The notes: a model not told the origin generated them from the sequence alone. A stretch of DNA of 20,000 nt from an uncultured virus (IMG/VR IMGVR_UViG_3300025108_000034) (IMGVR_UViG_3300025108_000034), one strand, 5' to 3'; positions 2,510-17,772 are shown, numbered from the stretch's first letter. A program made the numbers and translations.

Positions 2510-3241
2510 ATGGCACGTCGCCCTGCTAAGTTTACAATGAATAACGAGCAGCGTAAGCTTGCTGCAGACAATCTAAACCTAGCAAGGAGAGAAGCTTGGA
2601 GACTTCAAAGAACTACTGAGATCGATTATCACACCTTGGAATCAGTAGCATTCGAGGGGTTATGCAAAGCGGCTTATCGTTATGACGCCTCAAGGCCTCA
2701 TCCTATTACGGGAAAGAGCATGAAGTTCTCCAGTCTGGCGACACCAACAATTCGCGGGGAGTTACTTCATTGGATAAGAGATAGGACTTACGCACTTAGA
2801 CTGTCGCATAAAATGAGAGAGCGATGGGTCAAGGGGCGAAAGCTCCTTTACAGAGGAGCAAGTGATATCGAGGTGGCTGAAGAGCTTGGGATCGATCGTC
2901 AGGAGTGGCAAGAAATCCGCAAGGTTTGTTCTGGTCCTCCCCTTGAGCTAAAGGAGCAGGCGAAGCCCTCAGAGCCTTTGACGGCTAGTGAAATCGATTT
3001 CGGTGCCATGTATCTAGAGTTAGCGTCGTCAGCCATGGAAGAGCTAGAGGATCAATCTGAGGTCCTTGATCGATTGGAGATATATCTAAGCGGAACAGGA
3101 TCTCGTCTCCCTACAGAAGCTATCGACAGGTTGCTTTCCATCGCAGGCTGCAGAGAGACTGATTGGTCCGAAGCAGGGATCGAACTGATTGATGGCTGTC
3201 AGAAACTGGCCAACAACCGCTATCAGCCAAATCTTTTCTGA
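2510..3241 (+). CDS. Phage RNA polymerase sigma factor (sigma70 family, group 3/SigF-like, regions 2-3)
   Basis: Region 2: NLNLARREA...LESVAFEGLCKAAYRYD...KFSSLATPTIRGELLHWIRD. Region 3-like segment: ASDIEVAEELGID. No recognisable region 4.2 HTH. Confidence 0.88.
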   Translation: MARRPAKFTMNNEQRKLAADNLNLARREAWRLQRTTEIDYHTLESVAFEGLCKAAYRYDASRPHPITGKSMKFSSLATPTIRGELLHWIRDRTYALRLSHKMRERWVKGRKLLYRGASDIEVAEELGIDRQEWQEIRKVCSGPPLELKEQAKPSEPLTASEIDFGAMYLELASSAMEELEDQSEVLDRLEIYLSGTGSRLPTEAIDRLLSIAGCRETDWSEAGIELIDGCQKLANNRYQPNLF

Positions 3242-14847: not shown

Positions 14848-14907
14848 CGAAAACTTTTTTTTTACAACCAAGATACACGTTCCAATCGCGCCCTCACTCA
14901 ATTCGCT

Positions 14908-15321
14908 GTGGATAAGCTTATTGAGTTCAATAACAATCCAAAGCCCGAGCCTTTTACCGAGACCCAAGGCAATACTACTGTTTCGGTACACATTGACAGG
15001 TTCAATGACGAAGTGACTTTTCAAGTCTTTTTATTCGGTCTTTCAATGTTTGAAGTTTCAGAGCAATGTTTAATTGTACGAAATGGTGGATTCTTTGACT
15101 CAAAAGGTCGTCCGTCTAGAACGACTCGTGAGCGACTAAATGGGCTGCTCGACGCTGCGGGCACTCTTGGGCTTATCCCAGAGGGTGTCCGTGCCTTCTT
15201 GGCTAACAACGGTCAAAAAGACACATGCCTGGTAGGCAAGGCCAGCAATGTTGGCGTCTTAGATGCTCAGTCATCCGATCGAGTGATTGCTCGAAACAAA
15301 GATCAGCTTTTGATTTTTTAG
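14908..15321 (+). CDS. Hypothetical phage protein (NGG...TTRERLN motif)
   Basis: The motif resembles a recurrent uncharacterised phage family. Start codon uncertain. Confidence 0.7.
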   Translation: MDKLIEFNNNPKPEPFTETQGNTTVSVHIDRFNDEVTFQVFLFGLSMFEVSEQCLIVRNGGFFDSKGRPSRTTRERLNGLLDAAGTLGLIPEGVRAFLANNGQKDTCLVGKASNVGVLDAQSSDRVIARNKDQLLIF

Positions 15322-15327
15322 TAATCA

Positions 15328-15335
15328 GGTATCCT
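15328..15335 (+). promoter_or_regulatory. Putative phage-sigma promoter motif GGTATCCT immediately upstream of the riboswitch-like RNA
   Basis: GGHADMCT match ending 9 nt before P1, consistent with a -10 element. Confidence 0.55.
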
Positions 15336-15344
15336 GAAGGTAAG

Positions 15345-15406
15345 CGTTGAGCTGTAGTGCATACTATTGCTGCAGACCGATCTGGAGGGAGCAACGGACC
15401 TTTAGA
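15345..15406 (+). ncRNA. Glutamine-II (Downstream-peptide)-like riboswitch
   Basis: P1 CGTTG(15345-49)/CAACG(15392-96); P2 CTGTAGTG(15352-59)/TGCTGCAG(15368-75); pseudoknot TCTGGAGG(15381-88)/CCTTTAGA(15399-406). It sits in the 5' UTR of a YRG-motif peptide gene. Confidence 0.75.
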
Positions 15407-15424
15407 CACTGTGGAGTAATCCCG

Positions 15425-15598
15425 ATGAACACTTTAAATTTGATTCGTAACGGTCTCAAAAAGAAAATTCGCTTAAACCAAGCTCAGTTTTATTTGAGCA
15501 AGGCCTATCGCGGAATCGACTACACGTCAGCCCATCAAGCTCCAACTTTAGACAATCCGGCTGGCTACAAATACAGGGGGATTGATTATAAAAAGTAG
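15425..15598 (+). CDS. YRG-motif (DUF4278-like) small protein, 57 aa
   Basis: GGAG RBS at 15413-15416; MNTLNLIRNGLKKKIRLNQAQFYLSKAYRGIDYTSAHQAPTLDNPAGYKYRGIDYKK* contains two YRGIDY motifs. Confidence 0.85.
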   Translation: MNTLNLIRNGLKKKIRLNQAQFYLSKAYRGIDYTSAHQAPTLDNPAGYKYRGIDYKK

Positions 15599-15664
15599 GA
15601 ACCCTGTCCGGTATTGCTAACAAGTGATCCGAAGCACCCAATCAAGAGGCAAACTGAATAGAGA

Positions 15665-15751
15665 ATGATTCGTCTTATGATTCTTTGTTCTGTCGTTTAC
15701 CTCTTGATCTGTCTCGCAATCGTCCAAACCTATTGGCTTTTTTATGTCTGA
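15665..15751 (+). CDS. Putative 28-aa single-pass membrane peptide
   Basis: MIRLMILCSVVYLLICLAIVQTYWLFYV*; preceded by GGCAAACT (15648-15655) and overlaps the next start. Confidence 0.45.
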   Translation: MIRLMILCSVVYLLICLAIVQTYWLFYV

Positions 15752-16010
15752 ATCAACCATGAACAACTGCTCTATTACTGTCGAGGCCTACCGAAATGGT
15801 CGGGTGACTAGGGGCTTATTTGCTTTGGAAGATCACTGGTCTCTCGATGAAGGTTTCATTGTCAACCCTAGAAAAAACAGTTATGATACCGTTGTGTGTA
15901 CATTAAAGAATCTAGACTTCGGTTTGTACGATGCTCAAGGAATTGATTACATTGCTAGTCTTCTCAATTGCCTCTCTAGCGATATTATTTCCGCCTACTT
16001 AGAGGAATGA
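15744..16010 (+). CDS. Hypothetical protein
   Basis: ORF in the packed series. Confidence 0.65.
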   Translation: MSESTMNNCSITVEAYRNGRVTRGLFALEDHWSLDEGFIVNPRKNSYDTVVCTLKNLDFGLYDAQGIDYIASLLNCLSSDIISAYLEE

Positions 16011-16013
16011 TCA

Positions 16014-16178
16014 ATGAATAGTATTTATAACGTTACTTACCTTACGAAGCAAGGAAAACGTGACTCTATGCACATTATAGCTAATGATGCTAATGACGCT
16101 AAAGACAAAGTCTCAAAACTTCCTGAACGTTATGCTCCGGTAAAAGTTGTACTGACTTATGGTATTGATCATGAATGA
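16014..16178 (+). CDS. Small hypothetical protein (54 aa)
   Basis: GAGG RBS; MNSIYNVTYLTKQGKRDSMHIIANDANDAKDKVSKLPERYAPVKVVLTYGIDHE*. Confidence 0.7.
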   Translation: MNSIYNVTYLTKQGKRDSMHIIANDANDAKDKVSKLPERYAPVKVVLTYGIDHE

Positions 16179-16353
16179 AGGCATCAATGAAAGCTGGACG
16201 ACTTATTTAGGTCGTTCTCTTAATGAGATGCAGTCAAGCCAGGCTCCCGAAGGCCATGTTTTAAGGGTCGAAGGAGCTCTTATTGAAGCCATTCAAAATG
16301 TGCGGCACATCCGCCGATGCTACAACAAGTCCAATAAAAAAGAAAATCAATGA
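16171..16353 (+). CDS. Small hypothetical protein
   Basis: ATGAATGA overlap with the upstream stop (track start is 16159). Confidence 0.6.
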   Translation: MNEGINESWTTYLGRSLNEMQSSQAPEGHVLRVEGALIEAIQNVRHIRRCYNKSNKKENQ

Positions 16354-17312: not shown

Positions 17313-17331
17313 CAAACAAACCTTGTCAAAA

Positions 17332-17772
17332 ATGAAAGACCATGCCAACTCAACAGCCTTGCAATGGTTCCGTCGCAGCTTAGGGGATTGGAAGAGTGAT
17401 CGACGTTATCTTTTTGCTCCCTCTTTGAAACCTGCAAACATGGTAACTAATTTCACTGTTAGTGAGGGGTCTAACGGCAATCAGTTCGTCATTCAATGGG
17501 AAGGACAGACTTCTGGCACTATGGAAACAGAACTCAACGGACTCGTGCTCAGCAGGTCGAGGGACTACTTTGGAGAAGAAAACCATTCCAGCACAGTAGA
17601 AGTCGTTGATAACGATTGCATCGTGCTCCGCACCGCTTATGATGGCATGAAGATTCGGGAAGAGATTAGGCTCCTTGTAGAAGACACAGTGCGCCTCAGG
17701 CAGACTATCGGCATTGACGAAAAGACTGGAAATGTTCGATTATGTGGTCAGTACTTCGAGCAAAGGGTTTAA
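17332..17772 (+). CDS. Phycobiliprotein lyase, S/U-type (CpcS/CpeS family, CpcV-like)
   Basis: N-terminal WFRRSLGDWKSDRRY, central LSRSRDYF, and C-terminal LRTAYDGMKIREEIRL...RLRQT...GQYFEQR match the CpcS/CpeS beta-barrel pattern. Start is ATG 17332 or TTG 17323. Confidence 0.85.
   Translation: MKDHANSTALQWFRRSLGDWKSDRRYLFAPSLKPANMVTNFTVSEGSNGNQFVIQWEGQTSGTMETELNGLVLSRSRDYFGEENHSSTVEVVDNDCIVLRTAYDGMKIREEIRLLVEDTVRLRQTIGIDEKTGNVRLCGQYFEQRV

Follow-up and report, generated by a model that had tools for sequence, protein, structure and literature searches.

What occupies the 103 nt between the stop codon of an ORF at 15321 and the ATG of a small peptide gene at 15425 in DNA of an uncultured virus, and can it sense glutamine? 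The stretch analysed here, 20,000 nt long and hereafter called the window, is a portion of a 40.9-kb viral record, and the intergenic space is wholly occupied by a leader element. A first-pass annotation had proposed that this is a phage glutamine-II-type leader, possibly a variant, placed before a YRG peptide gene. The genes of the window encode small and large terminase subunits, a portal protein, a primase, an exonuclease, a B12-type ribonucleotide reductase, a dCTP deaminase, a sigma factor and a CpeS-like protein, and the terminase, portal, primase, B12 ribonucleotide reductase, sigma factor and CpeS-like genes in this content identify the source as a cyanophage. The CpeS-like ORF (phycobilin lyase family) is found at 17323-17772 and the phage sigma factor at 2510-3241, and both belong to the auxiliary and regulatory genes that are typical of cyanophages. 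Positions 14900-16100 gave no match to isolated phages by blastn. The parts of the leader and its gene are listed below, with aptamer nucleotides numbered as in PMC6698751 and with R1 denoting a covariance model described further on.

15328 to 15335, + strand: putative -10-like box GGTATCCT, with the hexamer TATCCT at 15330-35, proposed from the TAnnnT of the relatives
15345 to 15350, + strand: C1, G2, U3, U4 and G5 (5' strand of the pseudoknot, PK) followed by A6, from the alignment of leaders
15351 to 15370, + strand: hairpin P1, 15351-58 with 15363-70, from the alignment to model R1
15371 to 15380, + strand: linking strand U17, G18 and C19 (15371-73) and linker AGACCGA (15374-80)
15381 to 15388, + strand: P2 5' strand UCUGGAGG, 8/8 pairs with 15399-15406
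15389 to 15398, + strand: P2 loop, G33 to A42, from the aligned columns
15392 to 15396, + strand: PK 3' strand, C36 to G40; and 15397, + strand: G41, the partner of C19
15399 to 15406, + strand: P2 3' strand CCUUUAGA, from the R1 alignment and its pairing with the 5' strand
15407 to 15416, + strand: expression platform CACUGU and Shine-Dalgarno GGAG, from predicted folds
15425 to 15598, + strand: 57-aa peptide gene with two YRGIDY motifs (phrog_545), stop codon at 15596-98

Standard models do not recognise the element. Rfam at gathering score (33 bits for RF01704, Glutamine-II) gave no match in the window, and the comparison with the Downstream-peptide and glnA models that had been proposed as a check came out negative even at E≤10, since the Rfam Glutamine-II and Glutamine models find nothing in 15250-15500 (251 nt) at that value. 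An identical sequence at a second locus (L476) had no Rfam match at E≤1. Over the phage's own record RF01704 yields a single match of 6 bits, away from the locus, and the other 20.9 kb of the record contain nothing detectable by Rfam at gathering score or by R1. RF01739 (glnA, type 1) was likewise without a match at E≤10, and only two hairpins and a pseudoknot are seen in the leader.

The evidence for homology comes from the relatives of the peptide. A tblastn search with the peptide gave matches in 30 isolated-cyanophage records, and RF01704 scores directly upstream of the orthologous peptide gene are 66.0 bits in S-CBS2 and 30.8 bits in PSS2. Upstream of the closest peptide relatives in IMG/VR (L008 and L009) the scores are 38.9 and 42.3 bits, and ten of ten further IMG/VR relatives scanned with RF01704 score 40.3-54.7 bits; these IMG/VR relatives are a script-filtered sample, taken among the matches listed from loose DNA pattern scans, most of which were due to chance. 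For two chromosomal loci of Prochlorococcus whose peptide is related, the scores are 57.8 and 58.5 bits. The RF01704 threshold is thus passed by 13 of the 14 phage relatives scanned, and the copy in the window is the outlier.

The covariance model R1 was built from 11 leaders, with the window excluded and the P1 and P2 pairs supplied; 10 of these leaders are at or above the RF01704 threshold, PSS2 being the one below it. With filters off, R1 aligns along its full length to 15342-15406, with 31.4 bits (E 9.5e-7), and the runner-up in the 20 kb, both strands searched, reaches 4.7 bits. Since a model that has never seen the window separates this match so clearly from the next best, the features of the leader are beyond chance. 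The score is about half of that obtained with the relatives (58.7-73.2 bits, including four outside the model set), and the aptamer of the window is 40-58% identical to that of any relative. We conclude with high confidence that the leader at 15345-15406 is a homologue of Glutamine-II, and the central proposal of the first-pass annotation is borne out by the RF01704 matches of the orthologues, by the R1 match and by the covariation of P1, P2 and pseudoknot described below.

The fold of this class is known from the crystal structure of the Prochlorococcus sp. RS01 aptamer (PMC6698751), in which P1, pseudoknot and P2 follow one another. The pseudoknot consists of C1:G40, G2:C39 (to which G18 adds a third strand), U3:A38, U4:A37 (with G35) and C5:G36, and the long-range pair C19:G41 closes it; glutamine is contacted by C1 N4, G18 O2', C39 N4 and G40 O6, and all pseudoknot pairs except U4:A37 and C5:G36 are conserved to more than 97% (PMC6698751). 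At the aligned columns of the window C1, G2, G18, C39, G40 and the C19:G41 pair are retained, and by analogy with the crystal structure these nucleotides may form the glutamine contacts and the triple here as well. The pseudoknot of the window joins CGUUG (15345-49) to CAACG (15392-96) at 5/5 positions. The same letters had been noticed earlier as CGTTGA and GCAACG at 15345-50 and 15391-96, where they do occur, but the helix they form is the pseudoknot and not, as then supposed, the closing part of P1. Nor do these ends indicate a type I-like RNA: 14 of 15 relatives have the flip to G5:C36, which also turns up among the listed host matches, and CGUUG/CAACG is, as far as the alignment goes, the common compensatory G5:C36 subtype of hosts and phages.

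The two helices were also given other labels at first. TCTGGAGG (15381-88) and CCTTTAGA (15399-15406) are complementary at 8/8 positions, two of them G.U, and the pairing that had been called an 8-bp pseudoknot therefore stands, although the helix is the plain P2, whose loop makes the actual pseudoknot. What had been taken for an 8-bp P2 is a shifted register of hairpin P1, for which homology indicates 15351-58 with 15363-70. This P1 has 8 positions, one of them a U.U mismatch, and is capped by a GCAU loop (15359-62); it is longer and more A/U-rich than that of the relatives. The shifted register, 15352-59 with 15368-75 including three G.U pairs, consumes G18-G21 and thereby buries the conserved G18 and C19; it is favoured over the homologous P1 by 1.2 kcal/mol (-8.0 vs -6.8), and it is the minimum free energy (MFE) structure of the isolated aptamer, while the MFE structure of the whole leader has the homologous register. 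The divergent 'ACCGA' junction reported earlier is an artefact of the shifted hairpin register, as the junction in the homologous register reads UGCAGACCGA against the Rfam consensus CGCAGUUCGA. Downstream of the aptamer the earlier description was accurate throughout: 6 nt (15407-12) separate the end of the stem from GGAG (15413-16), and the 57-aa ORF that follows contains its two motifs as AYRGIDY and KYRGIDY.

The proposal that homologous leaders be examined for covariation proved productive, as P1, P2 and pseudoknot are all supported. The set comprised 16 distinct leaders in a model-fitted alignment with 20 pairs (P1, 6:17, five of the pseudoknot, C19:G41 and P2). Standard pairs fill 95.6% of the cells vs 71.5% in shuffles, 15 of the 20 pairs are altered on both sides among the leaders, and the covariation score is 0.663 vs 0.194 in shuffles, none of 500 shuffles being as high; in a control with partners slid by 1-3 columns, 35-45% were paired. 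The alignment of P2 and its loop is independent of the model fit because the set holds no indels there. Two-sided changes occur at all 14 flanking-helix pairs, six in P1 together with 6:17 and eight in P2. The pseudoknot pairs are 100% standard, with columns 4-7 invariant in the 16 leaders and column 8:52 being G:C in 15 rows and C:G in one. G18, C19, A20 and the final GA of the linker are invariant in all relatives; the U17 of the window, found in 8 of 15 relatives as well, is able to pair with A6, a position (6:17) that covaries as A:U, G:C, G.U and A.C.

How such a leader may act is suggested by its close counterparts. A GFP fusion to the MED4 type 2 leader behaved as a translational ON switch (PMC6212724, as summarised in PMC6698751), and it has been proposed that glutamine stabilises the pseudoknot against a competing structure that occludes the ribosome site (PMC6698751). 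A candidate for the competing structure is seen here. Pairing of G18-C19-A20-G21 with the conserved CUGU before the Shine-Dalgarno appears both in the MFE structure of the whole leader and in the RNAalifold structure of 14 leaders, and positions 15370-15375 (the last P1 base, U17 and G18-G21) can pair with 15409-15414 at 6/6 positions in the window and at 3-6 of 6 in the relatives, with only 3 or 4 in five of the 14 leaders. Since its pairs are near-invariant, this OFF helix is of a kind that covariation cannot support. Without glutamine, G18-G21 and their 5' neighbours would pair with CUGUGG (15409-14), and the first two G of the Shine-Dalgarno GGAG would be covered; once bound, glutamine would hold G18 and C19 in the groove of the pseudoknot and leave the ribosome site free, with the result that the peptide would be made when host glutamine is high. 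A different pairing, in which the 5' CGUUG would bind the start-codon region, was set aside: it occurs in the MFE structure of the window but is absent from the 14-leader RNAalifold structure, and inspection of the relatives by eye showed no equivalent.

The reading we prefer is therefore a diverged Glutamine-II orthologue with its own -10-like promoter, most likely gating translation of the YRG/DUF4278-like peptide as an ON switch, and we assign it a probability of roughly 60%. That the leader still senses glutamine is probable to the same degree.

The feature that most clearly sets this copy apart is found at the junction between pseudoknot and P2. In the crystal structure a cis-Watson-Crick A33:G42 pair occupies this junction, is reported as 99.5% conserved and is important for the transition from pseudoknot to P2 (PMC6698751). 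The window has G33 (15389) and A42 (15398) where the corresponding columns 49 and 58 are A and G in 15/15 relatives; next to this pair, C32:G43 has likewise been turned round to G:C. The earlier suspicion of a variant was thus justified, but the deviation on which it rested was wrong and the real one, G33:A42 for A33:G42, had been overlooked. IMG/VR patterns requiring the swap gave 4 + 14 matches, none of which R1 recognised, and the first four appeared unrelated by eye. In 401 host-family genomes the canonical form had matches in 209, against 1 for a reversed-pattern control; the swapped form had one match there, in a sequence that has no hairpin and is not recognised by R1, against 2 for its control. 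A metagenome scan for the window's own form gave 22 loci, among which L476 alone is the element, in identical sequence. Contigs X3 and X4, from two further runs on other samples, carry the same letters with no differences (the leader is not covered in contigs X6 and X7), and because it is identical in L476, X3 and X4 the swap is not an assembly error. By these comparisons the swap is shared by none of the 15 phage relatives, and the supplementary alignment of PMC6698751 or the locus tables of PMC6212724 may list rare A33/G42 exceptions.

One may ask whether such an aptamer is merely a relic, of Glutamine-II descent and with its helices kept, that has lost the glutamine response and leaves the peptide constitutive or under transcriptional control alone. 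The copy is by far the most divergent (31.4 vs 58.7-73.2 bits with R1) and matchless in Rfam, a near-invariant pair has been altered, and P1 is weak, with its U.U mismatch and a slightly more stable competing register. Neutral decay should break pairs, yet at 40-58% identity 19 of the 20 modelled pairs are standard, the sole exception being the U.U at columns 12:28 in P1, so that 13 of the 14 flanking-helix pairs (P1 with 6:17, and P2) are intact. In P2, between 2 and 7 of the 8 pairs have both bases changed with respect to any one relative. Of 17 columns that are invariant in the relatives the window keeps 15, every ligand-contact base among them, and columns 33 and 42 are the only two lost. 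Even there, the change from A:G to G:A took two substitutions and left a pair of purines in place, and it is accompanied by the flip of the adjacent C32:G43 to G:C. Loss of the response is for these reasons unlikely, and a diverged switch that still responds to glutamine accounts better for the retained pairs and contacts.

A second alternative grants that the RNA works and assigns a purpose to its peculiarities: the G33:A42/G32:C43 junction and the slippery, A/U-rich P1 would, as a phage-specific adaptation, give the RNA a switching threshold or ligand response other than that of host riboswitches. The uniqueness of the swap among 15 phage relatives speaks for this, as do the lack of a credible swapped riboswitch in the IMG/VR pattern matches and the single match, at control level, in the 401 host-family genomes, where the canonical form is found in 209; the alternative P1 register, moreover, sequesters G18 and C19. 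The nucleotides of the binding pocket are unchanged, which makes a new ligand unlikely. All copies seen are identical and belong to a single lineage, which gives no sign that the swap has been selected, and a difference in energy of about 1 kcal/mol is no larger than the error of the folding model. We regard this adaptive reading as quite unlikely. The more general proposition, in which a functional Glutamine-II RNA with swapped G33:A42 and G32:C43 and a slipping P1 has its glutamine threshold retuned for phage use and the orientation of the junction pair is non-essential, is possible but doubtful. The window nevertheless offers a natural setting in which to test the junction pair A33:G42 of the glutamine-II fold: should the swapped form prove to bind glutamine still, the orientation of A33:G42 would be dispensable.

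The absence of any RNA element, with the similarity due to chance or to coding in a TTG-started 83-aa frame (15347-15598), is highly improbable, for although the frame is open from 15347 and the fold energy of the leader is ordinary (z -0.58; z -1.23), R1 matches with an E of about 1e-6 along the entire model, the substitutions follow a compensatory pattern, and the homologous peptides all begin at the equivalent of the ATG, where a GGAG-type site is followed by an M-x-x-L N-terminus. The diverged Glutamine-II switch remains the reading on which the comparisons below are based.

Glutamine riboswitches of this kind are not new to phages. The Downstream-peptide motif was described before short ORFs by Weinberg et al. 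2010 (PMC2864571), glutamine riboswitches are present in T4-like cyanophages (PMC9964418), and a glnA-type glutamine riboswitch adjoins the tmRNA gene of methylophage Melnitz (PMC9004378); with T4-like cyanophages and a methylophage in print, the phage-borne glutamine riboswitch is already known as a kind. Like the copy in the window, they are aptamers carried by phages and thought to couple phage gene expression to the nitrogen state of the host; they were found by standard models, which the copy in the window escapes.

Compared with type 2 (RF01704) of marine picocyanobacteria, the element has the same P1-PK-P2 order, keeps C1, G2, U3, U4, G18, C19, G35 and A37-G41, and likewise comes immediately before a short YRG/DUF4278-type ORF, the Shine-Dalgarno following closely on P2. 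It differs in failing Rfam, in G5:C36 for C5:G36 and U17 for C17 (both common), in G33:A42 for A33:G42 (unique here) with C32:G43 turned to G:C, in its long, A/U-rich and mismatched P1, and in being carried by a phage.

The closest counterparts are the cyanosiphovirus leaders (S-CBS2 gp099, PSS2 ACT65600 and those from IMG/VR), which precede genes of the same peptide family at 30-57% identity and share the order of -10-like box, aptamer, CACUGU-type spacer, Shine-Dalgarno and ATG and, except for S-CBS2, the G5:C36 subtype. In contrast to the window they score 38.9-66 bits with RF01704 (PSS2 30.8) and 58.7-73.2 bits with R1, and all have A33:G42.

Type 1 (glnA, RF01739; Synechocystis gifB/IF17) has the same ligand pocket with a CGUUC/GAACG helix (PMC6698751), and before gifB/IF17 it also controls a DUF4278-containing protein (PMC6212724). 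It is built as a three-way junction that contains an E-loop but lacks a pseudoknot, whereas the window has neither the third helix nor a match to RF01739.

What appears from the alignments to be new here is a lineage-specific Glutamine-II variant that is invisible to Rfam and has a swapped junction pair. Its host phage adds one more, siphovirus-like, lineage to the cyanophages with a cassette of glutamine riboswitch and YRG peptide. Since diverged copies are missed by the standard models and recovered by a subfamily model, counts of phage riboswitches based on Rfam are lower bounds.

The promoter-like motif of the first-pass annotation, GGTATCCT at 15328-35, is in place and has its counterparts in the relatives, in which a TAnnnT hexamer (TAGAAT, TAAACT, TACAAT, TATCCT or TATAGT) lies 7-10 nt upstream of C1, but a sigma-70 consensus scan of the window called no promoter there. 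The scan misses the box because there is no -35. The position of the hexamer makes it a putative promoter, from which transcription would start a few nt before C1. In S-CBS2 (L001 511-524) a perfect GTA-N8-TAC, an NtcA-type box, overlies the -10-like hexamer just before the riboswitch; the window has GTA-N8-GTA only (15329-15342), and other relatives retain the first half-site within the -10-like box. The conserved GGTA box was considered as an NtcA site and dropped, as this fits S-CBS2 alone with its perfect GTA-N8-TAC.

The peptide matches phrog_545 over its full length (E 1.1e-15) and scores 24.5 bits against PF14105 (DUF4278), whose cut-off is 25.3. Among 14 homologues, 12 match DUF4278 below the cut-off and none above it, and PF14105 is precomputed for four of seven database relatives. 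The 14 homologues have in common the N-terminal M-x-x-L, an invariant L17, Q21 and Y28-R29-G30, and a second, nearly invariant Y-R-G. No match was found between the peptide and the sequences of solved chains in the PDB. Short host proteins of this sort are described as IF17-like (PMC6212724); the same source gives IF17 a C-terminal region for glutamine synthetase binding, a part that the short proteins are without. By analogy one may guess that the phage peptide has a role like that of the IF17-like host peptides, in nitrogen assimilation, which can be put forward as a hypothesis only, since short IF17-like proteins do not have the C-terminus that binds glutamine synthetase. A relative with 37% identity is encoded on a contig labelled as a Verrucomicrobiales MAG (L489), with no R1 match upstream of it; this is possibly a mis-binned phage contig.

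The surroundings of the peptide gene vary among the relatives. In L257 (447-520) and L309 (446-519) the opposite strand carries a tRNA gene (66 bits), located some 90 nt upstream of where the riboswitch begins. In the myovirus-type relatives (L010-L087, e.g. L050 at about 345-400; L003 303-356; L006 341-388) a conserved GGGACGCAAACGACUGAAGGAACGG core precedes the peptide gene; it overlaps the end of the upstream small ORF, and there is no adjacent 5' CGUUC. Sub-threshold Glutamine/Glutamine-II matches (21-28 bits) are present in these relatives about 250 nt farther upstream, before that small ORF, and the whole looks like a tandem or rearranged arrangement.

Several further structures were observed near the locus in the window. 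Within the ORF at 16159-16353, positions 16207-16244 give the next-ranking, weak matches to both RF01704 (6 bits) and R1 (4.1 bits); CGUUC, a short hairpin and UGCAG are present there, GGAACGG is absent, and the match is probably due to chance. An A/U-rich hairpin followed by U6 at 15298-15321 overlaps the stop codon of the upstream ORF and may be a weak terminator that insulates the riboswitch unit; the scan made no call for it. In the 145-nt spacer 3' of the peptide gene a long imperfect hairpin spans 15639-15708, a region with a fold z of -3.15 for which none of 200 shuffles was equally stable, and a small CCAA/UUGG hairpin with a U6 run lies at about 15722-15742, immediately 5' of the next ATG. 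Judged from the predicted folds, the hairpins in this spacer could be a terminator or a stabiliser.
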